From positions 1-61,873 of the forward strand of contig DATKKM010000062.1 in assembly GCA_035542855.1 (NCBI GenBank): a stretch of 61,873 nt of DNA. Reading direction: 5' to 3'. Shown here piece after piece: positions 36,397 through 55,604 of this stretch; position 1 is the first letter of the stretch, and the number at the start of each line of letters is the position of its first letter. The DNA is from Dehalococcoidia bacterium (lineage in GTDB: Bacteria > Chloroflexota > Dehalococcoidia > SM23-28-2 > RBG-16-64-32). The notes beneath the pieces were generated by a model. That model saw only the letters and a list, made by a program, of their open reading frames with translations. It was not told where the DNA came from and did no database searches. The position numbers and the translations under genes are program-made.

Positions 36397-36409
36397 GTCG
36401 GACCTCCCC

Positions 36410-37273: not shown

Positions 37274-37323
37274 TCGTGCGCCAGACCTAACACAGGCTAT
37301 CGGCCGGGCGTTGAGATAAGGGA

Positions 37324-37356
37324 TACCCGGCGTCGATAACCGGTTGGCGCCGGGTA
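37324..37356 (-). terminator. Candidate terminator hairpin downstream of the 1879-aa gene
   Basis: 9-bp stem TACCCGGCG/CGCCGGGTA with a 15-nt loop containing AACCGGTT, 49 nt after the stop. The trailing U-tract is weak. Confidence 0.4.
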
Positions 37357-37404
37357 CCCGTATTTAGACGGCTTCCTCCTCCCCCCTCACCTGTGCCTGC
37401 GGGG

Positions 37405-40400: not shown

Positions 40401-40665
40401 AGAACGCGGCTGTGGAACCGGCCGCGCCGCCATCCGCCTGCGCGCTGCCGCCGCTGACTGAGACAGAGCCGCCAGTCCACGTCTTCTGCGTCCAGAGTGA
40501 CGAGTCCATCACCGAACCGAGGAACAGGTCGTCCATGGCCGGGGCGAGCCGCACTTCGCCGCCGGCGTCTTCCGTCACTGCGGTCCCTGAGAGGTCGCCC
40601 AGCGCGAAGTCGGCTCCGGTGGTGTGGAACGTGGTCGTAACCGTGTTCTGTGGGCCGGATTCGCT
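37405..40665 (-). repeat. Three ~0.9-1.2-kb coding super-repeats (approx. 39750-40665, 38580-39470, 37405-38290) separated by FN3-like units (approx. 39470-39750, 38290-38575)
   Basis: Read from the protein-level three-fold repetition. Boundaries are approximate. Confidence 0.7.
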
Positions 40666-43044
40666 TGTCGTTGTGAACGTTCGGTCGCTGCTGTTCGCCG
40701 TGTTGCCCGCCGCGTCAGTGCTCGTCACCTTGTAGTGGTATGTCGTGGACGGCGCCAGGCCGCTGACCTGCACAGAGTGCGTTGTCGTGGGGCCGGGGAC
40801 AAGCGGAGTTGTCGTGCCGTAGGAGCTTGTCAGTCCGTAGGACACCTGGCTGCTGGAGCCTTCGTCGGTCTGCCAGGTGATGGTGGCGCCGTCGTCAACG
40901 ATATTCGTCGCCGCGATGTTGGAGATAGTCGGCGCCGTGGTGTCTTGCTTGATGACCTTGATGCCTTCGCCTGGCAGCTCAACGTTGCCGTTGGAGTCTG
41001 TGGCGCGGCTCATGATCTGAAACACGCCGCTCGAAGGAAGCGACCAGTTGTACGACCAGCTCGTCGTGCCGGAAGCGTTGGCCCAGGTCTGGCCGCCGTT
41101 GGTGGAGACCTCAACCTTGGACACAGAGCCGCCGTTGGCGGACGCCGTCCCGTGGATGGTGTAGCTGCTGCCGGAAAGCGTCTGCCCGGCCGTGGGGTCA
41201 GTGATTGTCGAAGTGGGGGCGACCATCTCGGCCGTCGTGTTCACGTTGACCGTGCGCCCGTTGCTGAACGGAGTCGTGTTGAGCGCGTTGCGCACGGGGG
41301 TGCTGCCGCTTCCCGTGAAGATGTAGTACTGCGTATCGATGTCGCTGGCGCCGGTGAAGGTCACCGACTCCACGTTCGTGCCGGTGTCGAAGCTAGCGCT
41401 GGCCAGCGACGAAGTCGCCAGGGCCCGGGCGTACTGTGCCTCGCGGTCGTACGTGACGTAGATCGGGTTGTACGACGAGACATTCGACGTGATACTGCTC
41501 AACTCGGTTGACCAGGTGCTGGGCGAGACGTTGGCCAGCTCGTACTCGTGCAGGAACAACGTGGCCGGGACCATGGAGTCGAACGCTGTTTTGAGCTGTG
41601 TTGTGCCGGTCGCGATCACGTCGCTCGCAGCGCGGTTGGCCGTCAAGTCGTAGCTGCTGCCGCGGACCTCGGTGAGGAAGTCGAAGAACGTCCCGTTCAA
41701 CGGGTTGCCCGGGGCGATGTTGAGCCAGTCCGCGATGTAGACGTTGTAGAACTGGTTGGTGTTCGTGCCCGGCAGCCCGTACGTGCGATACGGGCCGATC
41801 CACAACTGCGGGCTGGCGTCGCTGTAGGGGTAGCCGGGAAGGTTCGTCGTGGAGACGTATTGCACGCCGCGGGCCGCCAGCTCCTCGTAGACGTTGCTGC
41901 CAGACTCGTAGTAGTGGAAGACCACTACTTTGGACGGCGTGATCCCGTACGTTGCGAAGAACTCGTCCTGCAGCGCGAAGTTCGCTGCGACTTGATTATC
42001 GGTGAGGTTCTGCCCGCTCTGGTGGTTGAAGTAGAAGAACTGTTGGTCCGCAAAGGAGTGAATGGACGCCGTCGCCGAACCATCGTTGATCAGGTCACGC
42101 AGGCGGTAGGCCTTGGTCGGCGTGTAGTAGTTGAAGAAGATCGGGAGGAGCGGCCTGAAGCCGTACTGGTTGGCGATGTCCACGTAAGAGAAGTTGCTGC
42201 TGCCAAGGGCGTCGCCGGTGGCGTCATCCACGCGCATCGAGACCAGCGGCGGCATGCCGCGCAGCACGAACGGCTTGCGCGCCGCCCAGACCAGCCCCCG
42301 CCAGACCAGGTCGTCCATGCCCTGGAACTGCCCGACGACGGCGTTGTTGATCCAGGTGTCGCTCGTCCACTGCACGGCGCGGCCGGAGCCGTACGTCGTC
42401 ACCACCATCAGCGGGCTGCCGCCGACGCTTGCCAGCGTCGTCACGTCGCCCGGCGTCGTGATGATGTCTCCCTGCATCGGGTTGCGGACGGTGTAGGAGG
42501 CAGGCGCCGTTTGCGCCGCGGTGATGTAGTGGCCGGACGAAGGGACCGATATCGAAGACTGCGTGCTGTAGCTGCCCGCGTAGCCGAACCCGAAGATCGC
42601 ATCCGTGAACGAGTAGCGGCTAGAGTTGCCGCCGGTGGCCAGGTCGCCATCGACGCTGAAGAAGCCGCTGCCCGCGTTGACCGCGGAGGAGATGTTCGAC
42701 ATCTCGCTGCCGCTGAGGTAACTCCCGCTGGTGTCCAGGCCGGTGTGGCCGACGATGATCAGCTGGTAGTTGGAGATGTTGCTCGTGATCGAAGTCGTCG
42801 AAATGTCGATCGTGTCGTAGGGAACGCCGAACTGCTTCAGGTACGTCTGCAGCCGCTGCTGGTACTGCGAATAGGACGGCGACTGCGAGTTGACGAGGAC
42901 GACCGCATTGGAGCGGACAGTGGCCGCCTGGCTGTCCCGGCCGCCCAACATGGCGATGATCCCCACCACCAGCAGCAGTGCGGCGAGTATTGGCGTCTTC
43001 CAGTTCAATCCGATTTTCAAAGCCGAACCTTTCCGGACATGCAT
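37405..43044 (-). CDS. Giant secreted protein (1879 aa): ~600-aa N-terminal region of unknown function, Ig-like domain, FN3-like repeats, three ~300-aa LamG/ConA-like + beta-sandwich super-repeats
   Basis: Signal peptide KTPILAALLLVVGIIAMLGG. Same FN3-like repeat type as 26766-34034 (DTTAPTISNIAATNIVDDGATITWQTDEGSSSQVSYG). Three-fold repeated blocks TTAADFALGTLSGTAVTEDGGGEVRL...GTQF.YYVDG.LVAT.NGFS..VKAW.SDY.NGGQK. Confidence 0.85.
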   Translation of the reverse strand: MHVRKGSALKIGLNWKTPILAALLLVVGIIAMLGGRDSQAATVRSNAVVLVNSQSPSYSQYQQRLQTYLKQFGVPYDTIDISTTSITSNISNYQLIIVGHTGLDTSGSYLSGSEMSNISSAVNAGSGFFSVDGDLATGGNSSRYSFTDAIFGFGYAGSYSTQSSISVPSSGHYITAAQTAPASYTVRNPMQGDIITTPGDVTTLASVGGSPLMVVTTYGSGRAVQWTSDTWINNAVVGQFQGMDDLVWRGLVWAARKPFVLRGMPPLVSMRVDDATGDALGSSNFSYVDIANQYGFRPLLPIFFNYYTPTKAYRLRDLINDGSATASIHSFADQQFFYFNHQSGQNLTDNQVAANFALQDEFFATYGITPSKVVVFHYYESGSNVYEELAARGVQYVSTTNLPGYPYSDASPQLWIGPYRTYGLPGTNTNQFYNVYIADWLNIAPGNPLNGTFFDFLTEVRGSSYDLTANRAASDVIATGTTQLKTAFDSMVPATLFLHEYELANVSPSTWSTELSSITSNVSSYNPIYVTYDREAQYARALATSSLASASFDTGTNVESVTFTGASDIDTQYYIFTGSGSTPVRNALNTTPFSNGRTVNVNTTAEMVAPTSTITDPTAGQTLSGSSYTIHGTASANGGSVSKVEVSTNGGQTWANASGTTSWSYNWSLPSSGVFQIMSRATDSNGNVELPGEGIKVIKQDTTAPTISNIAATNIVDDGATITWQTDEGSSSQVSYGLTSSYGTTTPLVPGPTTTHSVQVSGLAPSTTYHYKVTSTDAAGNTANSSDRTFTTTSESGPQNTVTTTFHTTGADFALGDLSGTAVTEDAGGEVRLAPAMDDLFLGSVMDSSLWTQKTWTGGSVSVSGGSAQADGGAAGSTAAFSNDLAFEARATLGTDSWQQLGIGTDLDGLSGNSRAVFSTASGGQVYARTSVNGVDTFTPLPGLTNSPHTYKIARSGTQFLYFVDGSLVATHNGFSGSVKAWISDYSNGGQKVSVDWLRILPFAFLSGTYESPRIDTGAPGVITTIAWHGATPSGTTLTVRTRSSTNGTSWSSWSSPVSSGGAISSPSARYLQYQVTLASSDSSTTPELDDVTLSGSPPPVIISNVAVTNITNNSATVSWTTNQPTDGVVNYGLTSSYGSSATDPAGMASSHSVSLTGLAQGTTYHYQVTSSAGGGNSAQSNDATFTTAVPGTGGALFQTTAADFALGTLSGTAVTEDGGGEVRLTPALNDLFLGSSIDSGRWTTKVWTGGSVIASGGSAQADGSAIGSNASFSGDVVFEARATLGTDSWQQLGLGTDLDGSAGNSRAVFSTRNGGGVYTRTSINGSDTWTALSGLSNAPHTYRIERTGTQFRYYVDGTLVATNNGFSSAVKAWVSDYGNGGQKTSADWVRVTPFSTLSGTFESAIVDTGAPGAVTTISYHGATPNGTSLAVRTRTSSNAANWSAWSNPTASGATITSPAARYIQYQLTLTSNSSSVSPEIDDVGFGGGTPPVITGPTVSNITSSSATVSWSTDLSTDGVVSYGLTSSYGSSATDPAGFLTNHSVTLTGLSSGTVYHYQVTSTTNGGASAQSNDATFTTSVSTISTPQTTAADFQSGVLSGTAISEDSGGEVRLAPALNDIFSGGSLNGSLWSVSNWTGGSATVSGGNVTLNGNGIGSQATFSAGAVFEGTATFTGESWQFFGLASDLDGSNGGNRAGFTTGPSGTGMYARTSINNVDTFTAIAGNYLGSSHTYRVEWASSVVRYYIDGTLVVTQNQSVPGPLKAWASDYANSGNVLTAGWLRVTPYAASGTYLSGVFDAGSGSSFATITYGSTTPAGTSVQMRTRASTDGINWSAWSNPVASGGAITSAALRYLQYQITLTTSDTAQTPLVDSVALAH

Positions 43045-43048
43045 TCAG

Positions 43049-43062
43049 TTTGAGCGCTCAAA
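43049..43062. promoter_or_regulatory. 14-nt perfect palindrome abutting the start codon of the 1879-aa gene
   Basis: TTTGAGCGCTCAAA ends 4 nt from ATG 43044, where a Shine-Dalgarno sequence would be expected. Confidence 0.3.
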
Positions 43063-43095
43063 GTGAGCTCCTGACGAATGCTTAGATTGCTACAT

Positions 43096-43120
43096 TCAGG
43101 TTGAGGTCAGGTTGAGTCAG
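43096..43120 (-). promoter_or_regulatory. Perfect tandem 11-bp direct repeat upstream of the 1879-aa gene
   Basis: Plus strand TCAGGTTGAGG TCAGGTTGAGT CAG. Sense strand CTGACTCAACCTGACCTCAACCTGA. TCAACC lies at -71/-60 from ATG 43044. Confidence 0.55.
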
Positions 43121-43133
43121 ATGGTGCATACCG

Positions 43134-44309
43134 CTACCTAAATCCCCCATGGATCGCGCGCCGGGACACCCGTTTGTATACGCCGATCACCCCTTCCGCC
43201 AGGTTGTCTTCTGAGAAGCGCTCATGCACCAGCTGGTAGCCGGATTCGGCGAGGTGATCGCGCAGTTCGGCGTCGGTGAGAATCTCGCCGACGGACCGCG
43301 CCAGCGCCCCAACGTCCCCCGGGGGAACGACCAGTGCGTGCTCCCTGGGAACGACGGTCTCCGGCACCATGCCAACCGCTGTCGTCACGGAGGGGATGCG
43401 CATCGCCATCGCCTCCAGGAGCGTGTACGGCCCGCCCTCCCAGAGGGACGGCATCACGAAGACGTCCAGCGCAGACAGCAGGCGGGGAATGTCCTTGCGC
43501 TCGCCCGTGAAGATCGTCTGCTGGCCGATCCCCAGCTCGCGCGCTTGCGCTTCCAGGCGCGGGCGGAGATCGCCGTCGCCGACGACGAGGAAGCGAGAAG
43601 CAGGGCAGCTCGCCGCGAGCTGCGCGGCCATCTCCAGGAACTGCGATATGCCCTTGCGCTCCTCCGTCAGCCGGGACACGACCCCAATCAGCGGCGACCC
43701 CGCAGCGACGCCGAGTTCCGCCCTCGCCCCTTCACGGTCACCCGCCGCCGGATCGAAGCGGCCGAGGTCGACGCAGTTGTGGACGGTGAAGAACCGGGCC
43801 GCGTTTCTGCCCAGGTCACGGGTGTGGTACTCGGCGTTCTGGCCTGAGACACAGATCACCGCGTCCAGGCCATGGTCCTTCACGCGCAGCCACAAGCGGT
43901 CCTTCCAGGGCGGCACTTCCTCCAGCGGTTGGTGCTCCGTCCGCACGAAGCACCGGATTCCCGCAGCGCGGCCTGCCAGCATCGGTAGCTCGCCGCGGAA
44001 GGGGCCCGTGAGGTGCAGGTGGAGGGTGCCGCCGCGGTAGTTCTGGAGGAGCCGCTCCAGGTCGCGCAGGCGGCCCACCTTGGCGATGGCGCCCCTGGCG
44101 TCGTCCAGGGCGTGCACCTCGACGCCCTCGGCCTCGCAGGCCTCACGCAGCGGAGCGATGACAGGGTCCGAAGAGCAGATCAGGCTCGTCCTGTAACCGC
44201 GCCGGCGCAGCCCACGCCCCAGGCTGACGATGTGCTGCTCCATCCCGCCCATCATCCAACTGTTGGTGAAGAGGACCACCGGGCCCAGGCCCGGCTCTGC
44301 GTCTGACAC
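43134..44309 (-). CDS. Glycosyltransferase family 4
   Basis: PVVLFTNSWMMGGMEQHIVSL...VFVMPSLWEGGPYTLLEAMAMRIPSVTTAVGMVPE. The ORF-track start (45020) runs antisense through the divergent GT4 gene and is rejected. GTG 44309 (alternatives 44318, 44321) is the likely start. Confidence 0.75.
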   Translation of the reverse strand: MSDAEPGLGPVVLFTNSWMMGGMEQHIVSLGRGLRRRGYRTSLICSSDPVIAPLREACEAEGVEVHALDDARGAIAKVGRLRDLERLLQNYRGGTLHLHLTGPFRGELPMLAGRAAGIRCFVRTEHQPLEEVPPWKDRLWLRVKDHGLDAVICVSGQNAEYHTRDLGRNAARFFTVHNCVDLGRFDPAAGDREGARAELGVAAGSPLIGVVSRLTEERKGISQFLEMAAQLAASCPASRFLVVGDGDLRPRLEAQARELGIGQQTIFTGERKDIPRLLSALDVFVMPSLWEGGPYTLLEAMAMRIPSVTTAVGMVPETVVPREHALVVPPGDVGALARSVGEILTDAELRDHLAESGYQLVHERFSEDNLAEGVIGVYKRVSRRAIHGGFR

Positions 44310-44323
44310 ATCCACCACGATAT

Positions 44324-44348
44324 GGTTGCGACGTTGCCGGACGGTTGA
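44324..44348 (-). promoter_or_regulatory. Three CAAC(C/G) hexamers in the divergent GT4/GT4 intergenic region
   Basis: Sense strand TCAACCgtccgGCAACGtcGCAACC, with 11- and 8-bp spacing. Confidence 0.3.
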
Positions 44349-44456
44349 GCGCCGGTGTAGCTTCCGGGCGCGGGAATGTGGCGCGAACGGGCAGCGGTGC
44401 GCCTCTACCGGCGCGCGACAGCGCTCGCAACCTCCCATATACCATGATGGCTGAAT

Positions 44457-45623
44457 ATGGGAGCTGTTGTGTCTAATCGGCCGCTGCGGGTGCTGTTCTA
44501 CCCGTTCCTCTTCCTTCCTGAGGCCTGGAACGGGATGGACGAGCACATGCGCCTCCTCAGCCGCTACCTTGACCCGGCCCGCTTCGAGCTTCTCGTGATC
44601 GAGCACGAGGGCGACGGGCCGCAGACGCGCACGCTGGCCGAGCGCGCCGGCATCAAGTTGCTCGCAGCGCCGCACTCGCCCGGAGCCGGGGCCGCCGCGA
44701 AGGTGCGCGGCCTGCGGCGCCTCTTCTCGCAAGAGAAGATCGACATCCTCCACATCCACAGCCCCGCGGCCGGCGGCCAGGCCGCCCCGGCTCTCGCCGC
44801 CAGGCTCGCCCGTGTGCGCGCCACGCTGGCGACGTATCACCAGATTCAGTCCCGCACGCTGCCGCGCCGGACGCGGCTGATCAACGGCCTCACCCACCGC
44901 TTCCTCGTCGACGCGACGGTTGCTGTCTCGCGCGATGTCGCCGCGTCGCTGACGCAGCGCACAGGGGTGCCGAGCGGACGTATGCTCGTCGTCCACAACG
45001 GCATCGAGATCGAAGCCCACGCACAGCCGTCTGCGCCACCGCCGGCCGGCGAGGTGCGCCTGGCGTACTTCGGACGGCTGTCAGAGGAGAAGGGGGTCGC
45101 TGACTTGCTGCGTGCGCTCGCTGTTCTGGCGCCCCGCTGCCCGCAGGCGCGCACTTGGATCGCCGGCGAAGGGCCGGAGCGGGCGGACTTGGAGCGCCTC
45201 GCCAGGAAGCTCGACATAACCGGCGTGGTGGAGTTCCTCGGTTTCCGCAGCGACGCGCGGGAGCTGATGGCGCGGGCCGACATCGTCGTCCACGTCCCGC
45301 GCTATGAAGGGTTCGGCCTCGTCCTGCTGGAGGCGATGGCTGAGGGCAAGCCGGTCATCACCAACGACGCGCCTGGCGGGATGTCCGAAGTGGTGGTCGA
45401 CGGCGAGACGGGAATCGTCGTGCCGGCCGGCTCGGAGCGCGATCTCGCCGGCGCGCTGGCCCGGCTGATCGAAGACGGTGACGAGCGGCTTCGCCTGGGG
45501 AAGAACGGGCGCGAGCGGTGTCTCAGCGAGTTCTCAGCTGAAGTGATGGCGCGGCGAACGGCGGAGGTCTACGAGGCGGTGGTCACTCGTCCGCGCCGGC
45601 TCCCGTCCGCTTACCGGCTGTAG
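44457..45623 (+). CDS. Glycosyltransferase family 4
   Basis: LRVLFYPF...DILHIHSP...VVHVPRYEGFGLVLLEAMAEGKPVITNDAPGGMSEVVVDGETGIVV. Confidence 0.85.
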   Translation: MGAVVSNRPLRVLFYPFLFLPEAWNGMDEHMRLLSRYLDPARFELLVIEHEGDGPQTRTLAERAGIKLLAAPHSPGAGAAAKVRGLRRLFSQEKIDILHIHSPAAGGQAAPALAARLARVRATLATYHQIQSRTLPRRTRLINGLTHRFLVDATVAVSRDVAASLTQRTGVPSGRMLVVHNGIEIEAHAQPSAPPPAGEVRLAYFGRLSEEKGVADLLRALAVLAPRCPQARTWIAGEGPERADLERLARKLDITGVVEFLGFRSDARELMARADIVVHVPRYEGFGLVLLEAMAEGKPVITNDAPGGMSEVVVDGETGIVVPAGSERDLAGALARLIEDGDERLRLGKNGRERCLSEFSAEVMARRTAEVYEAVVTRPRRLPSAYRL

Positions 45624-46782
45624 CGGAAGCGGCAGGCACGGCGCCGGCGCCGTTCTGGGCCCTGCGTCCGAACCTGGTCGCCCGGTGGAGGAGAGCGCCC
45701 AGCTTCTCCGTGCGGCGGCCCATCACCAGCAGCGAAGGCAGCGCGCCGCGCGGACCGTCCCACGGCACGAACTGCACCGCGCGCCGCCAGCGCCCCACGC
45801 GCAGCTCCATCACCTCTGACTCGCGCCAGAGGAGCCGGTGGACGACGCTCCGGCCGGACGCGGCGGCCAGGCGCTCCGCCTCCGGCGGCAGCTGCGTGCC
45901 CAGGAGCATGGTCAGCAGGCGCAGCGTGTACCCCAGCGACGACGAAACGCCCTCGCGCTCTGCCGTCTCCAGGAGCCAGGGCCAGTCCAGATCGGGGCCG
46001 CGCAGGCGCAGGATCAGGTCGATGTCCTTGAACCAGAACAGCCCGCCGAACCCGTGCCGGCTGAGGTGGACGCAGAGGAAGAGGAAGAGATCGTTGAGGG
46101 CAAGGACGCGCGTCTCGTGCCCCTCCAACGTCCAGGCCTCCGCGCGTTGCCAGACATCGCTCAGGAACCGCGGCTTCACCCCGATCTGGAAGTGATCGTA
46201 GTGCACGTCCAGTGAGATGTGCGTCTCTGAGTGGGTGAACGCCGTCTCATATGGCCACTCGCAGGTGCCGTGGTTTGCCGCTTCCAGCCCGCCGTGGTCT
46301 TCGGCCACCCTGTAGCCCAGGTCTGCGCACACTTCCATCGCCCGGGAGTGGGTTTCGATTGGCAGAAGCAGATCAATATCGCCGTAAGGGCGGAGCGCCG
46401 GGTCCGGGTAGAAGCGGTTGGCTATCGCCGGGCCTTTCAAGAGGACGCTGGGGACATCGTGGGCGCTGAGCGCCTTCTGGACGCGGACCAGCTCCCCGCT
46501 AAGCATCAGCCCCTGGAAGGCGGCGCGCATGGCGTTGTTGCGGATGACGCCCAGCGTCTTTGCCGGAACCGCTTCGCTCAACCCAGAGGCGGCGATGCTC
46601 TGCAGAACCCAGCCGGACATGCGGTGCTGGACGCAGTGGAAGGCCACCTTGTCCCAGTCCCGCACCGCCGACGCCGCCGCGGCCAGGCAGCCGTTTGCCG
46701 CCGGCCGCTCTCCCCGGACGGCGAGGGTGACGAACGCCGCTTCCGGTGACTGCCGCGAGGTGAAAGGTGACCGCATCTTCAT
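45583..46782 (-). CDS. NTP_transf_5-type 'uncharacterised nucleotidyltransferase' (lasso/RiPP-associated)
   Basis: YGDIDLLLPIETHSRAMEVCADLGYRV, and a position at the end of the lasso operon. Its 3' end overlaps the convergent GT4 gene by 41 nt. Confidence 0.65.
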   Translation of the reverse strand: MKMRSPFTSRQSPEAAFVTLAVRGERPAANGCLAAAASAVRDWDKVAFHCVQHRMSGWVLQSIAASGLSEAVPAKTLGVIRNNAMRAAFQGLMLSGELVRVQKALSAHDVPSVLLKGPAIANRFYPDPALRPYGDIDLLLPIETHSRAMEVCADLGYRVAEDHGGLEAANHGTCEWPYETAFTHSETHISLDVHYDHFQIGVKPRFLSDVWQRAEAWTLEGHETRVLALNDLFLFLCVHLSRHGFGGLFWFKDIDLILRLRGPDLDWPWLLETAEREGVSSSLGYTLRLLTMLLGTQLPPEAERLAAASGRSVVHRLLWRESEVMELRVGRWRRAVQFVPWDGPRGALPSLLVMGRRTEKLGALLHRATRFGRRAQNGAGAVPAASATAGKRTGAGADE

Positions 46783-46788
46783 CGAACC

Positions 46789-47595
46789 CTAGTAGTGCGA
46801 AAGCGACCCGTTGGCCTTGGCGGAACGGACGGCCAGCTCGAACACGAGCAGGCTGATAGGCAGAAGCAGGGCGAATCCGGCCAGCACCGCGATATCGCCT
46901 GCCGTCGCGGAGTTGCTGCTGCCGTCCGCCAGGAGCGCATCCCGCAGCGCGGACATGGTGTGTGTTAGCGGCAGCAGCGGCGAGATCTTCTCCAGCCAGC
47001 CCGGCAGAAGTGATGTTGGGTAGAGCACGCCGCTCACCAGCACCGATGACGTGATCAGGAACGGACTGATCGGGTCGGACTGCTTGAAGCGCAGCACGAA
47101 AGACCCGGCGAGGATGCCGAGGCCGCCGAAGATGGCCACGGTAAGCGCCAGCACCACGATGGCGGTAAAGATGCCGCCTGCACGCAAATCGACGCCCAGC
47201 AACAGCCCGCCGACAACCAGCGAGACGGCCAGCCGGATAGCCGCGAAGGTCAGGCCGTACAGCGATGAACCGAAGAGGAACATGGCGCTGGACGTGCGGG
47301 ACTTGAGCATCACCTCCAGTGTCCCGGTGACCTGGGCGCCGCGGATGGATGATGTGAACTGGCCGGCCGCCGTTTGCGCAAAGAGCAGTGCAGACGCCCC
47401 GATCAGCGCGAAGCCGAAGTAGTCGTTGCCGTAGGCGGCCAGCGAGTCCGGCTGGCCCTGGTCAACCAGTTTGCCGACGAAGTTCAATGTGATCAGGCTG
47501 AAAACCAGCATCACGATCGTCTGGATGAAGCTCAGCCGGTAGCTCAGGGCGATCCGGAAGTCCCGCTGCAGGAAGGCCACGGACTTGGCGATCAT
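46789..47595 (-). CDS. ABC-2-type transporter permease
   Basis: Six predicted TM helices, ABC-2 layout, ATGA-type overlap with the ATPase gene. Confidence 0.75.
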   Translation of the reverse strand: MIAKSVAFLQRDFRIALSYRLSFIQTIVMLVFSLITLNFVGKLVDQGQPDSLAAYGNDYFGFALIGASALLFAQTAAGQFTSSIRGAQVTGTLEVMLKSRTSSAMFLFGSSLYGLTFAAIRLAVSLVVGGLLLGVDLRAGGIFTAIVVLALTVAIFGGLGILAGSFVLRFKQSDPISPFLITSSVLVSGVLYPTSLLPGWLEKISPLLPLTHTMSALRDALLADGSSNSATAGDIAVLAGFALLLPISLLVFELAVRSAKANGSLSHY

Positions 47596-48599
47596 ACGGT
47601 CACCTCCCGTGACGTCAGGCGGTCAACCAGCTCCTTGAGCGGCGCCGCCCGGGAGAAGGCGCGGATGGTGACGCCCGCCGCCGTAATCGCCGTGATCAGC
47701 TCCGGCAGGGACATCTCTTCGTTGTCGCACCAGACTTCCAGCTCGTGGTGGCCGTTGGCCCGGCTCAGCGTGGCGTCGCGTACGCCCGGCAGCTCCCGCA
47801 GTCTCGGCAGCTCCAGTGCGCTCGCGTCATCGATGACGATGGTCAGTCCGCGCAGGCCATGCATCGCCTGCTGCAGGTCTGACGTTCTCAGCTCGGCCTG
47901 GATCTTGCCCTGCACCAACACAGCGGTACGATCACAAACAGCCTCCGCTTCCTCGGCGCGGTGAGTGACCAGGATGATCGTCATCCCGTGCTCCGTGGAG
48001 AGGCTCCGGACCAGTGACCAGATCACGCGGCTCTCCGTCGGGTCCACGCTGCGTGTCGGCTCGTCGAGCAACAGCAGTTGCACTCGGGACAGGAGCGCGC
48101 GGGCCAGCGCGAACCGCTGGCGGACGCCGGCAGAGTACGTGGCGAACGGCTGCTCGATATAGCCGCCGAGGCCGAGGCGTTCGCTCAGCTCATCGATGCG
48201 GCTGCGGGCCGCGCGGCCGTGCAGGTCGTCCAGGGCGGCGAAGAACTCCAGGTTCTCGCGCCCGGTGAGGCGCCAGTAGAAGCTGCGGTCATCGGTGAAG
48301 GAATAGGCGGTCATCGAGCGCACGCGTCCACCGGCCCGGGTCACGTCCTGCCCGCAGACCCTCGCCACGCCGGAATCCGGCTGCACGAGTCCGGCCAGCA
48401 CCTTGAGCAGCGTCGTCTTGCCGACGCCGTTCGATCCGAGCACTCCGACAACCTCGCCCGGTTCCACGGCCAGGGAAACGCCGTCAAGCACGCGCTTCGT
48501 CGGCCGCTTGCCCCGGTTGCGGATCATCTGGCGCAGCGACGTGTTCAGGGGATATTCCTTGATGACGTCGCAGACTTCAACGATTGACATCACACACAC
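47592..48599 (-). CDS. ABC transporter ATP-binding protein
   Basis: Walker A GSNGVGKTT, signature YSAGVRQR, Walker B LLLLDEP, plus a C-terminal extension. Confidence 0.9.
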   Translation of the reverse strand: MCVMSIVEVCDVIKEYPLNTSLRQMIRNRGKRPTKRVLDGVSLAVEPGEVVGVLGSNGVGKTTLLKVLAGLVQPDSGVARVCGQDVTRAGGRVRSMTAYSFTDDRSFYWRLTGRENLEFFAALDDLHGRAARSRIDELSERLGLGGYIEQPFATYSAGVRQRFALARALLSRVQLLLLDEPTRSVDPTESRVIWSLVRSLSTEHGMTIILVTHRAEEAEAVCDRTAVLVQGKIQAELRTSDLQQAMHGLRGLTIVIDDASALELPRLRELPGVRDATLSRANGHHELEVWCDNEEMSLPELITAITAAGVTIRAFSRAAPLKELVDRLTSREVTV

Positions 48600-49592
48600 T
48601 CAAACTGCCGAAGCTGCCGGCGCACCGGCGAGAATGGCGCCCGTCAGCTCACCCAGCCGGTCCAGGGACCGCGGCGCCAGGACGGCGTTGACCTGCGTTT
48701 GTTCGACAATGCGAGAGAAGACTTCCATCTGGCGGCCCTGCAACTCCGGCTCGCGCGCCAGCTGGCGGGCGTTGTAGGAGTTGCCAATGAGGCGCAGCAG
48801 CGCCTCGGGGCCGGTGAGCCGCTTCACTTCAACGTCGCGCTCTGGAAGCGCGGGAAGCAGGACGCTGATCGAGGCCAGCGGCGCCGGCTCGTCGTACGTG
48901 CCGCCGAGGTCGTGCGCCGTCACCACGCGCTTCTCCAGCCAGGAGGCCAGGCGCGGAGACTTCTCCCACTCCGTGCCGGGGTACAGGCGGCTGAGCGTCT
49001 CCGGGACCAGCTTCATGGTGGCCGGGCCAGGGAGCACGGTCACCTCCGGCCCGCTGGCGTCCAGTGCGATGCACCCGTCAGTTAGCAGCTTGCAGCCGCG
49101 CGCCATGAGGGCTGCTGCGGTGGTCGACTTGCCGAAAGTGGATGGCGCGACAAGAGCGTAAGCCTTGCCTTCGTGGACGACAGCGCTGCCGTGCAGGCAG
49201 ACCAGCCCCTGCAGCTGCAGCGCGAACCCCAGGACGGGTCCCGCCGCGGCGGCGGCGATGTCGGCCAGGTTCTCGCTTTCCGGCGCCCAGTAGATGCGGG
49301 CGCCGTCCGGTGGCACCAGGTAGTTGGCCAGGCCGGGATAGTGCCAGTGGTAGCGGTCGCCGTCCCACTTCAGGGAACAGACCAGCTGGCCGGCGTGGTC
49401 CAGTGCGTCGTACACGGTGCGGGCGTCATCGGCCGGCTCGGGCCGGCGGGACATGCGGACGACGATTGACGCCTCGCTCTTCTTCACCTCGCTGGAGGGC
49501 AGGAAGAGAGAGAGGCGGAGGTCGCTCACGACGTTCCTGCCAAAGACTCGGTATTGGTGACGTGAAACTCGTCTAGCGGTGCGCAATCTCAT
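48600..49592 (-). CDS. HPr-kinase/phosphorylase-like protein (lasso-peptide kinase family)
   Basis: CLHGSAVVHEGKAYALVAPSTFGKSTTAAALMARGCKLLTDGCIAL (HprK C-terminal P-loop block). Located directly downstream of the precursor ORF. Confidence 0.7.
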   Translation of the reverse strand: MRLRTARRVSRHQYRVFGRNVVSDLRLSLFLPSSEVKKSEASIVVRMSRRPEPADDARTVYDALDHAGQLVCSLKWDGDRYHWHYPGLANYLVPPDGARIYWAPESENLADIAAAAAGPVLGFALQLQGLVCLHGSAVVHEGKAYALVAPSTFGKSTTAAALMARGCKLLTDGCIALDASGPEVTVLPGPATMKLVPETLSRLYPGTEWEKSPRLASWLEKRVVTAHDLGGTYDEPAPLASISVLLPALPERDVEVKRLTGPEALLRLIGNSYNARQLAREPELQGRQMEVFSRIVEQTQVNAVLAPRSLDRLGELTGAILAGAPAASAV

Positions 49593-49665: not shown

Positions 49666-49833
49666 CTATTCGCCGCTCAGGTTGCCGGGCGGCGGCGTGC
49701 CGCCGCTGTCCTTGAAGACGACCAGGTAGTCGGCTGGGCCGTGCTCCTTGTTGAAGTCAAAGCCCGCCGTAACCGCCCGAATGTCACCGTATGCCTGCAG
49801 AGCAGGCTTCTGGTATGGCCTTTTCTCTCCCAT
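49666..49833 (-). CDS. Lasso-peptide precursor (55 aa), not in the ORF track
   Basis: Hand translation: MGEKRPYQKPALQAYGDIRAVTAGFDFNKEHGPADYLVVFKDSGGTPPPGNLSGE*. AAGGGGGG lies 8 nt upstream. Leader has YxxPxL...T(-2). Core starts with Gly1 and has Glu7. It sits in the 255-bp gap between the cyclase and kinase genes. Confidence 0.8.
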   Translation of the reverse strand: MGEKRPYQKPALQAYGDIRAVTAGFDFNKEHGPADYLVVFKDSGGTPPPGNLSGE

Positions 49834-49847
49834 ATACACATCCCCCC

Positions 49848-51743
49848 TTACGTTTGTTTTAGTCGGTCAACCGTGTGACCGCGGGACACCGAATTTAAGT
49901 CCAGCCACAGGCCTGCGGTGATCGCCCGCCAGAGCCCATGCCACCACGGGTGGCGACGTGACTGGTAGTCTGCCAGCTCCCCGTTCAGGAGCCGGTTGTT
50001 GATGTACGGGAGCTGGCTCAACGGGCCCGTGAGCGCTCTGTCCACGCGGCCCCGTTCCTTTTCCAGCAGACCCTTGTTCATAAGCTGATTGAATACGCCG
50101 TATCCCCTGCGCATAGTCACCAGTTCCGGCAGGCGGGATTTCATCGCCGCCCGCATCAGAGCCTTGGTCTGGCCGGCGTCGCGGTGCACCCAGTCCGGCA
50201 CGCGGTGCACGGCGTCTATCACGCGCAGGTCCCACAGCGGAGACCGTATTTCCAGGCCGAACTGCGATCCGGCCCACCGTTCCCGCCAACCGGCCAGGGG
50301 AACCATATCCCGCATGTGCATCCGCCAGAACCGGCGATAGGCGCGTCCGCGGGCCCAGGACACCGCTGGCAGGGGCAGATCCAGCGCGCCCTCCAATCCC
50401 AGTTGCTTCATGGCGGCCGGATCCACCCAGCACGGTAGCGGCTGCAAGGAAGGCCGGCCCCGCACCCTGCGGTACTGCTCTCTGATGCTGCTGGGTACAA
50501 GCGGCAGGACGGCGTTGTTCATGAGCAGCGCACCCAGCGGGTAATCGAAGCGCCGGCTCCAGGCCTTTGCCTCGTTCAGGGCGCGGACAAAGTGCCCACG
50601 GGTGAGGAGCACTGCGATGTAAGCGTTTGTGCCGGTGAAGAATTCATCTCCCCCGGCGCCATCAATGAGAACGTCCACGCCCTCTGCGGCCCCTGCCCGC
50701 GCCAACTCCACCATCAGCGGCGCCTGCATAGGCACGTTTGGCTGATCAAAGGCTTCGTCGGCCAGCCTTGCTGAGCTGAGGCTCCAGCATTCGTCCGCAT
50801 CCACTTCGGTGACCGGCATGCCGAGCCGGCCGGCCACGGCCCTGCTGTACTCGCGTTCATCCAGCCCGTCGAGTGTGGCCGAGTAAGCGCTCAAGGCTCG
50901 CACGTCCGGGCTGAGTTCGGCCGCCACCGATGCGACGTAGGAGGAGTCCAGGCCGCCGCTGAGAAGAATGGCGGCCCCGGAGTTCGAACGGAGCACAGCC
51001 GCGACGGCTTCCTGGAACGCGGCGTCTACCGCCTCCACGTAGTCTTCGCGCCGCTTGAGCTTGAGCTCCGGCAGCGGGCGCGGCCGCCAGTATTCGCGGA
51101 CCGTGATTCCGTCTTCGTCCGCCAGCAGGTAGTGAGCCGGTGGCACCTCGGACACAGCGCGGTAAGGCGTCGAGCCGGGCTTCGGCGGGGCGCCGGTGAG
51201 GTGACGGGCCAGGAACTCCTGGTCGATTTCGTCGCGAATGCCTGCCGCCAGCAGCTGACGCGGCTCCGAACCGATGGCCAGCCCACCGGCTGTGCGCGCA
51301 AAGACCAGGGTGCGGAATCCCTGCTGGTCGCGCGCGGCGAAGAGCCGCCGCCTGGGTCCGTCCCACAGGGCGAAAGCGAAGTTGCCGAGCATGTGCTCAA
51401 GGCAATTGACGCCCCACCTGTCGTATGCGTGCACGATGAGGTCCGCGTCCGTCAGGACCGGCACGTCCGGGTTGTGCAGGGCCAGCTTGTTGATCAGGTC
51501 CCGGCGGTTGTCGATGCGCCCATCAAGCGCGATCTGATAGCGGCCGCCGAGCGTGATGAGGGGCAGCCCTTCGGAGCGGGCTTCCGGCGTCGTGGGCAGC
51601 AGCCGCTGGCCCAGCGCGATTTCGGCGCCTGTCCAGGTGCTGACGATCGGCCCGCGGCGCTCGATCTTGTCGAGCAGGATCTGGAGGACGTCCTTCAGGG
51701 CGTCCGGCGAAAGGCGGCCGCTGACGGCGGCGATCCCGCTCAT
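49848..51743 (-). CDS. Lasso-peptide cyclase (asparagine synthetase B-like, C protein)
   Basis: 631 aa. N-terminal Ntn-like domain, PP-loop AILLSGGLDSSYVA. ATGA overlap with B2. Confidence 0.85.
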   Translation of the reverse strand: MSGIAAVSGRLSPDALKDVLQILLDKIERRGPIVSTWTGAEIALGQRLLPTTPEARSEGLPLITLGGRYQIALDGRIDNRRDLINKLALHNPDVPVLTDADLIVHAYDRWGVNCLEHMLGNFAFALWDGPRRRLFAARDQQGFRTLVFARTAGGLAIGSEPRQLLAAGIRDEIDQEFLARHLTGAPPKPGSTPYRAVSEVPPAHYLLADEDGITVREYWRPRPLPELKLKRREDYVEAVDAAFQEAVAAVLRSNSGAAILLSGGLDSSYVASVAAELSPDVRALSAYSATLDGLDEREYSRAVAGRLGMPVTEVDADECWSLSSARLADEAFDQPNVPMQAPLMVELARAGAAEGVDVLIDGAGGDEFFTGTNAYIAVLLTRGHFVRALNEAKAWSRRFDYPLGALLMNNAVLPLVPSSIREQYRRVRGRPSLQPLPCWVDPAAMKQLGLEGALDLPLPAVSWARGRAYRRFWRMHMRDMVPLAGWRERWAGSQFGLEIRSPLWDLRVIDAVHRVPDWVHRDAGQTKALMRAAMKSRLPELVTMRRGYGVFNQLMNKGLLEKERGRVDRALTGPLSQLPYINNRLLNGELADYQSRRHPWWHGLWRAITAGLWLDLNSVSRGHTVDRLKQT

Positions 51744-52198
51744 GCTGCGTCCTCCGCCATGACTGCGGCGTCCGGGAGGCGCTCCGTGCCCTGGAGCACA
51801 GTGAAGACGGCGCAGCGGTCTCGCGAATCGTTGACGGGTTCGCCGGCGATCTCGATCCAGGCGTGGGCCTGGATGCCCTGTTCGCCGTTGCGAACGCCGA
51901 AGCGCAGGCGGCTGTTCATTCCCCTGCGGCGCAGCATCCAGCTGAGAGCCAGAGAGCGCTGCAGGCAGCGGGCCTTGCGCGGAAGCCGCCTGGCAACCGC
52001 GCCAACGTCTCGCGCCAGCAGGTACGCCTGCTGAATGTCTTCTGGCTTGCCAGTGTCGCGGGCTAGCGCGTGGTCTGTCCAGCGCCGCAAGAGAACGCGC
52101 TTGGGCAGCGCGAAGCCGGCAGCCACCAGGCAGAGGCAGATGGCAGCTTCCAGTTTGGCGCGCAATCGCGCCGGGCGGCGCAGTTTAATGAGCCCCAC
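51740..52198 (-). CDS. Lasso-peptide leader peptidase B2 (transglutaminase-like Cys protease)
   Basis: CLQRSLALSWMLRRRGMNSRLRFGV....GIQAHAWIEIAGEPVND (Cys/His catalytic blocks). GTG 52198 overlaps the B1 3' end by 14 nt. Alternative start: 52261. Confidence 0.8.
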   Translation of the reverse strand: MGLIKLRRPARLRAKLEAAICLCLVAAGFALPKRVLLRRWTDHALARDTGKPEDIQQAYLLARDVGAVARRLPRKARCLQRSLALSWMLRRRGMNSRLRFGVRNGEQGIQAHAWIEIAGEPVNDSRDRCAVFTVLQGTERLPDAAVMAEDAA

Positions 52199-52481
52199 CG
52201 TTCGTCCTGTTGGGCTTGATGAGACCCTTGGCCCGGAGCGACTCAAGGAAGAACTCGACATCCTCTCTGACGTCTGAGCCGTTGATCTCGAAGTTCTCCC
52301 TCACGCTCTCGCAGATGCTGGGCAAGGAAGAGCCTGCCTCCAGCATGCCCCAGATGTGCGTGCCGACGTTGTTCAGCCCGTAGTACTCGCCTGTCTCCAG
52401 GTCAAGCATCACGGCCTCGCCATCGACGATCCTGTGAAGAACGCCGGGCTTAACCTCGAACTGTGAGGCTGATGCCTCCAT
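52185..52481 (-). CDS. PqqD-family RiPP recognition element (lasso B1)
   Basis: IVDGEAVMLDLETGEYYGLNNVGTHIWGML...EDVEFFLESLRAKGLI. ATG 52481 has AGGAAGGA upstream. Confidence 0.85.
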   Translation of the reverse strand: MEASASQFEVKPGVLHRIVDGEAVMLDLETGEYYGLNNVGTHIWGMLEAGSSLPSICESVRENFEINGSDVREDVEFFLESLRAKGLIKPNRTNGGAH

Positions 52482-52543
52482 TGTCCGTGTTCCTTCCTGC
52501 CCTGTATGCACGGCCTCCCATCCGAATCCGGACAGGAGCGCCA

Positions 52544-52780: not shown

Positions 52781-53803
52781 TTAGGAAGAGCAGCCGGAGG
52801 CGTCATCGACGGCGATCGTGAGCAGAAGGCTCAGCGCATCGCGCGGATCCACCCTGTGATCGCAGTTGAGGTCGCCCTTGATCGCATTGCCGGAGACGCT
52901 GCCGATGTTGCGGCACCCCGTCGCGGCCGGCACCCCGCCGACGTACTTCAGAAGCAGGCTGAGGTCGCCGGTGTTGACCTGGCCGTTGCAGTCCATATCG
53001 CCAAGCAAGTTGGCCGGGGCTGTCGGCGTTAGCGTGGGCGTTGGCGTCATCGTGCCCGTAGGCGTCGGCTGGAACGCCTCCGTTGGCGTCGGAGTCGGCG
53101 TGTTCGTCGGCCCCGGAGGCGGAGATGCCACCTGGGTGGGCGTTGGCGTTGCCGTCCCGCCGCCGCTGCAGTTCGCGTTCGCCGCCACCTGCGCGTTCAG
53201 CACGTTCGTGACGCTGATTATGTTGCCGGCGTCATCGGTCGCCGTGACTCCCGTAAGCGTGAGGTTGCTGACCCCGGTGCCCGCCTGGCCCTGCAGCGTG
53301 ACACGCGCAAGCACGCCGGGTCCGACTTCTGAGGCGCCCGACGGCTCGATGCCCTTGCCGAAGTCCAGGGCGCTCAGGCCCGCAGTGCCGTCGCTGGACG
53401 TCGTATCGCCGAAGGGGATCACTGTGCTGCCACTGGCCTGGGCCAGGAGCTGATTGTAGTCGACGGCGGTGACGTGCACCTTGCTGGCGTCGTAGTTGAG
53501 GACGAACTGAAAGCCGGAGAGACCACGGTCGGAAGCCACCTGGTCCTCGAAGATGTCGATCGCCAGAGTCTGCCCGTTGTTCACGCGGTTGCAGGTGTCC
53601 CTGGTCGTCGCCACGCCCACCTGCGTTCGCGCCGTGTTGCCGGACGTGTTCATGTCGATGCCGAGGTTGGTTATGGGGCTGGTGGGCGCCGCTGTGGCGT
53701 GCTGGCCGCCGCGGACGAAGAGAACCAGCGCGATCAGGCCAAGGGCGACGATTGCGAGGTTGATTCCGGCCTGGGCGACTCGGCGGGGCGGGATTCTGAT
53801 CAT
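52781..53803 (-). CDS. Membrane-anchored cohesin-like + (TP)n linker + type-I-like dockerin protein
   Basis: AAGAGGTG + 6 nt + ATG 53803. Signal-anchor INLAIVALGLIALVLFV. Cohesin-like block [18 protein letters not shown]...GVLARVTLQG...LTLTGVTATDDAGN. Dockerin loops DMDCNGQVNTGD and DLNCDHRVDPRD. Confidence 0.65.
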   Translation of the reverse strand: MIRIPPRRVAQAGINLAIVALGLIALVLFVRGGQHATAAPTSPITNLGIDMNTSGNTARTQVGVATTRDTCNRVNNGQTLAIDIFEDQVASDRGLSGFQFVLNYDASKVHVTAVDYNQLLAQASGSTVIPFGDTTSSDGTAGLSALDFGKGIEPSGASEVGPGVLARVTLQGQAGTGVSNLTLTGVTATDDAGNIISVTNVLNAQVAANANCSGGGTATPTPTQVASPPPGPTNTPTPTPTEAFQPTPTGTMTPTPTLTPTAPANLLGDMDCNGQVNTGDLSLLLKYVGGVPAATGCRNIGSVSGNAIKGDLNCDHRVDPRDALSLLLTIAVDDASGCSS

Positions 53804-53993
53804 GAGTAACACCTCTTGAGCATGGGGCGCGTGCTTGCGCGGTGCTTACACAAACTAGACGTTGAACCGTGGGAGGCGTTACAAGATGCGCTACCCGGCG
53901 CTCCTGAGAAGCGCATCTGAACCGGACTAGTCACAGCCGGTTGCACCGCCAACCCCACGACTCTTGCGCATTAAAGAGTGTTCGGCGGTCCCT

Positions 53994-54127: not shown

Positions 54128-55225
54128 CTAACCGCCAAGCTTCAGGAGGTTCGAGATGGAAGGCGCCTTTGGCGTCGCGTGGGCGCTGGTCAGCTTGCAC
54201 CTGGGACTCCTGTGACCGATTGCCCATAACCAGCCGCCCAGCCAGCCGCGGAACCTGCACGTCTGTGGGGAGACGATCGGCGTGGGCTTCGGCGTCGGCG
54301 TTGCGGTCGGGCGCGGCGTGGCGCCGCCGACTTGCCTCGGCGTGGGCGTGGGGGTAGGAGTCCTGGTTATGGCCGGCGTGGCCGTCGGCGTTGGCGTTGG
54401 CGTTGGCGTTGGCGTAGGACCGATCGTCGACGTCGGCGTGGGCGTCGGCGTCGAAGAGGCCGGAGCGATCGTCGCCGGTTTCGTCGGCGTTGGCGTTGGT
54501 GTCGCGGCCGCTGTGGCGGTAGGCGTTGGCGTCGGCGACGGCGTGCGCGTCGGCGTGGGTGATGGCGTGCGCGTCGGCGTCGGCGATGGCGTGGCCGTCC
54601 CGCTGCAGCTGCTGTTCAAGGCCACCTGCGCGTTCACGATGGTCTGCACCGGTATCACTTCGCCGGCATCGTCCGTGACGGCCGTGCCTGTCAGCTGCAG
54701 GGTGCTGATGCCGGTGGACCCCGTCGGCGTGAGCGTGATCCGGGCCAGCAGCCCCGGGCCGGTCTCGGACGCGCCCGAAGGCTCGATCCCTTTTCCGAAG
54801 TCGATCTCGCTGAGGGAGGCCGTGCCGTCGCTGGAGGACGTTTCGCCGAAGGGGACGACGTTGCTGCCGCCGGCCTGGGCCAGGAGCTGGTTGTAGTCGA
54901 CGGCGGTGACCCGGACCAGGTTGCTATCGTAGTTGAGGACGAACTGGAAGCCGGAGACGCCACGATCGGACGGCACCTGGTCGGCGAAGACGTCCACAGT
55001 GCCGGCCTGTCCGCTGCTCAGAGCGATGCAGGGGTCGGGGGTGGTCACGTCCGTGCGGGCGGTGTTGCCCGACGAATTGGCGTCGATGCCGACTACCGAG
55101 ATCTGGCTGGATGAGACTGCGGTCGCGCCCTGGCCTCTGATGAGCAGGCCCAGCGTTAGCAGGGCGGCGGCGACGAAGGCCAGGTTCAGGAACGTCCGCA
55201 AAGTTCGGGGCGACAGTCTATTCAC
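54128..55225 (-). CDS. Membrane-anchored cohesin-like protein with very long (TP)n linker and no dockerin
   Basis: GAGAGGTG + 6 nt + GTG 55225. Signal-anchor [17 protein letters not shown]. Cohesin-like block [18 protein letters not shown]...[10 protein letters not shown]. About 120 aa of T/P-rich linker. Short Trp/Cys-rich C-terminus. Confidence 0.6.
54386..54412 (-). repeat. Hexanucleotide microsatellite (GGCGTT)x4 inside the (TP)n linker coding region
   Basis: gcgttggcgttggcgttggcgttggcg, embedded in ~330 bp of degenerate GGCGTN repeats (about 54290-54620). Confidence 0.7.
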
Positions 55226-55384
55226 GTGTGACACCTCTCTTGCATGGGGCGTGCGCCGAGGTGGGATGGTAAAGACTAGACGCGCAAGGCCGGGTCACGT
55301 TACATAACGCGAGAAGTTTACAGACGCCCGTACGCGAGCCGTGGTCACGCCGGGACGCTGCCGGAGCCTGATATCCAGCGGTCC

Positions 55385-55433: not shown

Positions 55434-55507
<74 letters not shown>

Positions 55508-55517
55508 GCCGGCGGCT

Positions 55518-55604
55518 TGGTGCCGAGGAGGGGATTTGAACCCCTACGCCCTTACGGGCACCGCCCCCTCAAGACGGCGTGTCTACCTATTCCACCACCT
55601 CGGC
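55518..55604 (-). tRNA. tRNA-Leu (GAG), class II with long variable arm
   Basis: GCCGAGGTGGTGGAATAGGTAGACACGCCGTCTTGAGGGGGCGGTGCCCGTAAGGGCGTAGGGGTTCAAATCCCCTCCTCGGCACCA. Anticodon loop TTGAGGG, A73, CCA encoded. Confidence 0.9.

Follow-up and report, generated by a model that had tools for sequence, protein, structure and literature searches.

Organization of the locus

The window analyzed here, a stretch of 61,873 nucleotides from a Dehalococcoidia bacterium (contig DATKKM010000062.1; 66 % GC), carries a lasso peptide gene cluster with the order B1-B2-C-A-K-ABC-ABC2-N, in which every gene lies on the minus strand. It begins with a PqqD-type leader-recognition protein (B1, 52185..52511; PF05402, E=2e-17), which public gene calls give as a 98-aa form starting at 52481, and with a leader peptidase of the Transglut_core3 type (B2, 51740..52261; PF13471), which has the Cys...His...Asp motifs, scores 83.5 bits with NF033537 against a cutoff of 33, and appears in public gene calls as a 152-aa form starting at 52198. 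The Asn-synthetase-like lasso cyclase (C, 49848..51743) has Asn_synthase (PF00733) and GATase_7 domains and an SGGLDS ATP-binding motif, and it matches NF033535 with E=2.8e-93, yet remains under the curated cutoff of that model. PDB sequence searches with B2 and the cyclase returned nothing informative. Beyond the precursor gene (A, 49666..49833) lie an HprK/P-like kinase homologue (K, 48600..49592; a weak TIGR04352 match), an ABC transporter ATPase with a putative role in export or immunity (47592..48599; PF00005), an ABC-2 permease (46789..47595; PF01061), and a PsmN-like NTP_transf_5 nucleotidyltransferase (N, 45583..46782; PF14907, E=2e-50) with the metal-binding motif GD135-I-D137 (GDIDLL).

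The precursor gene consists of 55 codons plus a stop, and translation of this minus-strand open reading frame from the ATG at 49833 to the stop at 49666-49668 yields MGEKRPYQKPALQAYGDIRAVTAGFDFNKEHGPADYLVVFKDSGGTPPPGNLSGE, identical to the peptide that the initial annotation had given. The ATG follows 14 nt downstream of the cyclase stop, behind a Shine-Dalgarno-like AAGGGGGG that we located at 49849-49842 on the minus strand, 8 nt 5' of the ATG just as annotated, and that overlaps the TAA stop codon of the cyclase (49850-49848). An in-frame GTG at 49839 was rejected as an alternative start because its spacing to the Shine-Dalgarno-like site is too short and because MGEK is the conserved N terminus, common to the precursor homologues. 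The gap of 255 bp between the cyclase and the HprK-like gene is likewise correct, provided that the kinase starts at ATG 49592. Public gene calls give a kinase of 309 aa, and the 330-aa form has 21 extra N-terminal residues, MRLRTARRVSRHQYRVFGRNV... (49530-49592, minus strand); since these are conserved in loci L001 and L097, ATG 49592 is the likelier kinase start. Around the precursor, no terminator-like site was found on the strand of the gene, the single match being on the opposite strand inside the open reading frame, and an RNA hairpin in the spacer between A and K was not significant (z = -0.74).

On direct reading, the leader (residues 1-23; 49765..49833, minus strand) has YQKPAL at -17 to -12, with Tyr at -17, Pro at -14, and Leu at -12, followed by Gly at -8, Thr at -2, and Ala at -1, and the junction reads VTA/G. 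The YxxPxL element and Thr(-2) reported before are thus both there, and the YxxPxL spacing (-17 to -12) follows the rule by which core residue 1 is fixed in PMC10368454. The leader belongs to a curated family, as the precursor scores 23.0 bits with NCBIfam NF033521 (lasso_leader_L3) against a curated cutoff of 19; literature searches with the leader string found no match. The core of 32 residues, GFDFNKEHGPADYLVVFKDSGGTPPPGNLSGE (49669..49764, minus strand), contains Tyr13 and Phe17 and has Glu7 as its only acidic residue at positions 7-9, in agreement with the initial annotation.

A frame of 55 aa is short, and DNA of 66 % GC yields many spurious open reading frames, so that a chance frame in a GC-rich intergenic gap had to be considered. 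This reading is effectively refuted by the match to the curated model, the conserved synteny, the purifying selection, and the family of homologues described below, as well as by the rarity of the motif: the strict lasso-leader motif has a single match when the window is read in all six frames, against a chance expectation in a short-ORF context of 0.015 per window (200 dinucleotide shuffles, 3 of which had one). B1, B2, and C, the class-defining neighbors of a lasso precursor, lie directly upstream on the same strand. With the leader match, the synteny, and a TA/G junction that is invariant among the closest homologues, the open reading frame is almost certainly a genuine lasso-type precursor, and its earlier assignment as gene A of a lasso cluster in which B is split and which also encodes a kinase and a nucleotidyltransferase is borne out.

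Homologues of the precursor

Two other parts of the initial annotation have to be given up. The gene is not unannotated, as the same 55-aa protein has already been called on at least 20 public metagenome contigs with identical neighbors, and the peptide does not lack close relatives, as it has homologues at 82 % (P0002), 67 % (P0022), and 63 % (P0021) identity, each encoded between a cyclase and a kinase gene, in addition to some 16 family members at greater distance. When 1.84 billion representative proteins were searched with a profile, 32 matches with E-values up to 0.001 were obtained, from which 15 new short sequences carry the core signature discussed below, and a metagenome scan with the precursor alignment gave 2 loci, of which L097 added one family member. 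There are thus about 20 distinct precursor sequences, several of them within complete C-A-K-ABC-N clusters; the family as used here comprises 20 precursors, all of which entered the motif table, while the alignment holds 19 sequences. The C-A-K arrangement is found again in L012, L014, L015, L097, and L098, and a precursor lies directly upstream of a kinase gene in about 80 genome loci.

The Tyr, Pro, Gly, and Thr of the leader, including Tyr -17 and Thr -2, are invariant in all 20 members. In comparison with three orthologues, dN/dS is 0.11-0.36 for the leader and 0.23-1.0 for the core; RiPP precursors usually show this combination of a leader under constraint and a core that varies more freely. 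Within the core, the tail SGGTPPPGNLSGE (core residues 13-32; 49669-49728) is identical in three orthologues despite pS of ~0.4, which suggests that it may be a functional motif or a motif for modification. The distant member P0039 contains SGGGTPPPP, which resembles the tail encoded in the window. Another member, P0042 (L099 5682-6153, L100 3683-4154), has only a PqqD gene beside it and lies inside an exopolysaccharide locus with a Wzz-like protein, a Tyr autokinase, Wzy, and GT2; no cyclase, B2, or kinase gene was found within 6 kb of it in L099 or L100.

Position of the ring acceptor

The initial annotation predicted a ring of seven residues closed between Gly1 and Glu7 (codon 49744..49746, minus strand), and the family comparison does not sustain this prediction. 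All 20 members share a core signature in which K-x-[F/W/L/H]-G-x-x-D precedes a run of 4-5 bulky hydrophobic residues; in the window it reads KEHGPAD-YLVVF. The Gly between Lys and Asp is nearly invariant, and the Asp stands at Lys+6 in 20/20 members. The only invariant core columns in the 19-sequence alignment are K29 and D35, corresponding to core Lys6 (codon 49747..49749, minus strand) and core Asp12 (codon 49729..49731, minus strand). By contrast, the residue aligned with Glu7 is E in seven members, D in four, K in three, T in two, Q in two, and R and I in one each, and it occurs at core positions 3-8. Counted from the Thr(-2) site, the invariant Asp occupies position 8 (n=1), 9 (n=3), 10 (n=8), 11 (n=4), 12 (n=3), or 13 (n=1), and positions 7-9 are devoid of acidic residues in 13 of the 20 members.

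That the product is nevertheless closed between Gly1 and Glu7, with Asp12 and Lys6 conserved for target binding or for recognition by a tailoring enzyme, appears unlikely to us, although several observations speak for it. Glu7 is the only acidic residue within the canonical window of 7-9, every characterized natural ring has 7-9 residues, Gly is common as a first residue, and the residue at Lys+1 is often acidic among the members (11/20), so that a lineage-specific switch to an acceptor within the canonical window can be imagined. Applied to the family, however, this reading leaves most members without a usable acceptor: the aligned residue is not acidic in 9/20, and in 10 of the 11 members where it is acidic it would close a ring of 4-6 residues, too small to encircle a tail. 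P0002, with 82 % identity and an identical tail, has the equivalent residue at position 5 and nothing acidic at 7-9. Compared with P0002, the precursor of the window carries an insertion of two residues (Phe-Asp), which seems to have brought Glu7 into the 7-9 range incidentally.

Since Asp12 is invariant and the position of Glu7 varies, Asp12 rather than Glu7 is probably the residue selected as the acceptor, and whatever likelihood these two assignments leave over falls to no product or to something else. In P0031, P0042, P0044, P0049, and L097, the invariant Asp is the sole acidic residue in the first 14 positions, and two of these, P0031 (Asp10 only) and L097 (Asp12 only), belong to bona fide C-A-K-ABC clusters. 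Cyclase genes also precede P0034 (Asp12) and P0047 (Asp13), and in a MAFFT alignment the family Asp shares a column with Asp9 of the outgroup L015, the only acidic residue there. If Asp12 is the acceptor, it follows that either the ring is oversized, with 12 residues in the window, or the nucleophile is a noncanonical one such as Lys6.

The more conventional of these chemistries would join the alpha-amine of Gly1 to Asp12 in a 12-residue macrolactam, with rings of 8-13 residues and a mode of 10 across the family. We regard Gly1 as a possible rather than a probable partner of Asp12. A ring of 12 residues would be unable to retain a tail by ordinary side-chain plugs, and cyclases that are ~70 % identical (window, L012, and L001) are paired with Asp at 12, 11, and 10, respectively, which under the alpha-amine model demands an unusual tolerance of ring size. 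The same model leaves unexplained why a Lys is invariant at Asp-6 and why core residue 1 is highly variable in the family (G, T, Q, I, M, S, F, A, R, or V). Other cleavage sites that would give a constant ring of 8 or 9 residues were rejected, as the first core residue would then be Pro or one that is not conserved, and the invariant Thr(-2) would be disregarded.

Literature searches found no characterized example of a natural ring of >=10 residues. For 86 leader-bearing precursors that adjoin related kinases in reference genomes, the acidic residue nearest the start of the core occupies position 9 in 42, position 8 in 10, and position 10 in 16; these 16 have no earlier acidic residue and come mostly from Acidobacteriota, and their genes lie just upstream of the kinase match (L019, L023, L025, L031, L034, L035, L043, L049, L051, L052, L057, L063, L064, L078, L083, and L091). 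Rings of more than nine residues may therefore be natural in the kinase-linked group.

A further reading keeps the ring size constant, at seven residues from Lys6 to Asp12, and regards the residues between Thr(-2) and Lys as a variable spacer outside the size-constrained ring. Here the epsilon-amine of Lys6 would attack, leaving residues 1-5 as a free stub, or the spacer would be trimmed such that Lys becomes residue 1 and Asp residue 7. Lys and Asp are indeed the sole invariant core residues, their i/i+6 spacing is fixed in 20/20 members, and in ordinary lasso families the invariant positions are residue 1 and the acceptor; moreover, the spacer is 1 to 6 residues long and of variable composition, with indels of 1-2 residues between systems whose cyclases are only ~30 % diverged, and the variability of residue 1 would be explained. 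Still, we consider this arrangement improbable, more so than the Gly1-Glu7 ring. Use of a Lys side chain by a lasso cyclase is not known and would be without enzymatic precedent, known B2 peptidases cut right after Thr(-2)-x and this Thr is invariant here, a conserved residue at -2 from Lys is absent, and the Lys is missing in outgroup precursors with Asp at 9 or 10. Trimming is further opposed by P0034 and P0038, the two members in which a Cys in the N-terminal spacer is paired with a penultimate Cys, which points to a spacer that is retained.

Three further family members have two Cys within the tail, the members with Cys pairs being P0033, P0034, P0037, P0038, and P0052. These patterns resemble the lasso disulfide classes, the pairing of spacer and penultimate Cys being that of ring-to-tail disulfides, and the spacer thus appears to remain part of the product. 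Taking the family as a whole, we see about an even chance that it makes noncanonical rings, either of 10-13 residues, threaded with the help of disulfides, the hydrophobic block, or bulky tail modifications, or closed by a Lys-Asp (i, i+6) isopeptide.

The kinase homologue and tailoring

The initial annotation set the precursor in a pathway with kinase tailoring, and the HPr-kinase-like gene does adjoin the precursor gene; what it did not mention is that both the C-terminal Ser of the precursor and the second catalytic Asp of the kinase are absent. The kinase homologues carry PF07475, and their family profile matches HprK/P of L. casei (1jb1) with E = 3e-8 and the two Asp residues aligned. In the window kinase, His134, Lys155, Ser156, and Asp172 are present and Gly173 replaces the second Asp, leaving incomplete the His-Lys-Asp-Asp set that is required in such kinases (PMC9266682, PMC10368454), while the spacing of 21 residues from His to Lys and of 17 from Lys to Asp is exactly that of BsfK (PMC10368454). 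Thr-Asp-Gly is found in the kinases of the window, L012 (P0004), and L014 (P0005), and Asp-Asp in all other relatives and in HprK/P. A scan of reference genomes with the kinase alignment gave 80 loci, none of them above 37 % identity to the window kinase.

On the side of the precursor, a C-terminal Ser is found in 14 of the 20 family members and is absent from the clade of the window, in which the precursors (window, L012, and L014) have ...SGE or ...PAT as their C terminus, the core of the window itself ending in ...NLSGE. The Ser-terminated members for which the sequence of the adjacent kinase is available (L097, L098, and L102) have Asp-Asp in 3/3 cases. Loss of the Ser at the C terminus and that of the catalytic Asp coincide in one clade as a single evolutionary event.

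One may ask whether this clade simply has a decaying pathway, in which the precursor is translated but cyclization and tailoring are inefficient and the ring region has acquired insertions. The joint appearance of Asp-Gly and loss of the Ser in the window, L012, and L014 would fit, as would the cyclase of L014, which is broken into several open reading frames on a contig that may carry sequencing errors. Against this, B1, B2, C, and K have dN/dS of 0.17-0.23 between the window and L012 (dS ~0.8-1.0), C, B2, and N retain their catalytic motifs, and the tail is unchanged in three orthologues at the divergence given above; decay is thus in our view very improbable, even less likely than a ring between Lys6 and Asp12. 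With a dN/dS of 0.18, purifying selection on the kinase persists, and because of this selection together with the identical tail in three orthologues, the kinase homologue probably still acts, perhaps on Ser20, Thr23, or Ser30, or in a noncatalytic role. Tailoring in this clade therefore probably differs from that of paeninodin and pseudomycoidin. On balance, the best explanation of the locus seems to us to be a genuine precursor whose product would be cyclized on Asp12 and tailored unlike either of these two peptides.

In the larger set of kinase-associated cores (L016-L095), the ending is [K/R]-T-x(0-3) in 43 of 86, against only 9 with a terminal Ser, which suggests that a Thr near the C terminus may be the phosphorylation site in the lineages with the [K/R]-T-x(0-3) ending.

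Comparison with characterized lasso systems

The combination of a kinase and a nucleotidyltransferase in a lasso cluster is already known from paeninodin, pseudomycoidin, and the Bradymonas bsf cluster. By analogy with the class, B1 would bind the YxxPxL leader, B2 would cut after Thr(-2)-Ala(-1) and expose Gly1, the Asn-synthetase-like cyclase would adenylate an acidic side chain and close an isopeptide ring, and the ABC pair would export the product; the chemistry of the pathway as a whole is inferred from sequence comparison.

The paeninodin system of Paenibacillus dendritiformis (pade, with the kinase PadeK) likewise has a split B1/B2, a cyclase, an ABC exporter, and an HPr-kinase-like gene beside the precursor, and its leader shares YxxPxL and Thr(-2). 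Paeninodin-type kinases phosphorylate the C-terminal Ser of the precursor (PMC9266682, PMC6993621), and paeninodin itself has an Ala1-Asp9 ring and a C-terminal Ser phosphorylated by PadeK, whereas the precursor of the window has its conserved Asp at position 12 and a C-terminal Glu, and the Asp-Asp of the paeninodin-type kinase is opposed by Asp-Gly.

Pseudomycoidin from Bacillus pseudomycoides (psm) is closer in architecture in that a kinase (PsmK) and an NTP_transf_5-type nucleotidyltransferase (PsmN) are both present, and the D-x-D pair of N in the window (D135/D137) corresponds to D134/D136 in PsmN (PMC6993621). The pseudomycoidin ring spans A1-D9, and the C-terminal Ser of this peptide is (poly)phosphorylated and then hexosylated (PMC6993621), and its authors proposed that this bulky modification acts as a lock for a loosely threaded tail (PMC6993621). 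The precursor of the window differs in being without a C-terminal Ser, with Ser20, Thr23, and Ser30 as candidate modification sites.

BsfA and BsfK of Bradymonas sediminis also represent a lasso cluster with both K and N and a precursor that does not end in Ser, and BsfA shows that such kinases are able to target positions other than a C-terminal Ser (PMC10368454). BsfA has Ile(-2), a Gly1-Asp8 ring, and a phosphorylated Ser3, and BsfK keeps the H-G-K-S-D-D set (PMC10368454). In contrast, the window has Thr at -2, Asp at core position 3, and a kinase without the second Asp; the features of BsfA-type precursors from Bradymonadales, Ile or Val at -2 with Ser or Thr at core 3, are both absent.

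A precedent for ring size is given by an engineered fusilassin variant with a 10-residue ring made by FusC in vitro (bioRxiv 10.1101/2020.11.25.399105; PMC8498205), which shows that a lasso cyclase is able to close a ring above nine residues. That variant is unnatural and one residue off the native size, whereas a spacing of 10-13 is here a natural state conserved in a family. Metanodin was rejected as a relative for its Asn1 ring, as was trilenodin for its Gly1-Asp9 ring; no kinase was found in the paper on trilenodin.

The lasso cluster itself is ordinary, and both its type and the leader family were known; what is unexpected is the displacement of the acceptor throughout a family. The apparent novelty lies in a precursor family that conserves a Lys/Asp motif and has its putative acceptor position outside the 7-9 rule, and in a clade that has given up the canonical phosphorylation site. 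An acceptor at core positions 7-9 is taken for granted both in textbook definitions of lasso peptides and by genome-mining tools. If an acceptor at 8-13 is true, then larger lasso rings would exist in nature, and it would have to be explained how their tails are kept threaded, or else lasso cyclases would use another nucleophile, amounting to a new type of cross-link. Either way, current miners systematically under-score such precursors, and the 16 with Asp10 only in reference genomes would be missed or under-scored by a search confined to positions 7-9. The clade of the window moreover provides a natural experiment on the kinase step, as the phospho-acceptor Ser and the catalytic Asp were lost together.

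Flanking genes and other loci

Tandem precursors with the lasso-type leader YSEPELKAHGKISGLTQ were seen in Nostocales and other cyanobacteria (L058, L061, L067, L069, L080, L084, and L090). As neither Asp nor Glu occurs among the first 14 residues of their cores, QVGGSGGFGTTT..., a conventional lasso ring is impossible.

In the window, a glycan-synthesis block (34144-45623) abuts the lasso cluster. It contains a fused epimerase/DegT aminotransferase (34144-36396), a GNAT (36410-37273), a 1879-aa surface protein with fn3 and purple-acid-phosphatase-N domains (37405-43044), and two GT4 genes (43134-44318 on the minus strand and 44457-45623 on the plus strand), and the junction between N and GT4 recurs on the contig of the kinase homologue P0006. 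On the other side, directly upstream of B1, lie the minus-strand genes of two secreted paralogues (52781-53812 and 54128-55234), each combining a cohesin-like domain with long linkers rich in Pro and Thr, the first of which also has a dockerin, and then two adjacent tRNA genes (55437-55507 and 55521-55604, minus strand; Rfam RF00005, 70.7 and 51.5 bits). A dockerin-type gene is present at the corresponding position in L002, L004, and L014.
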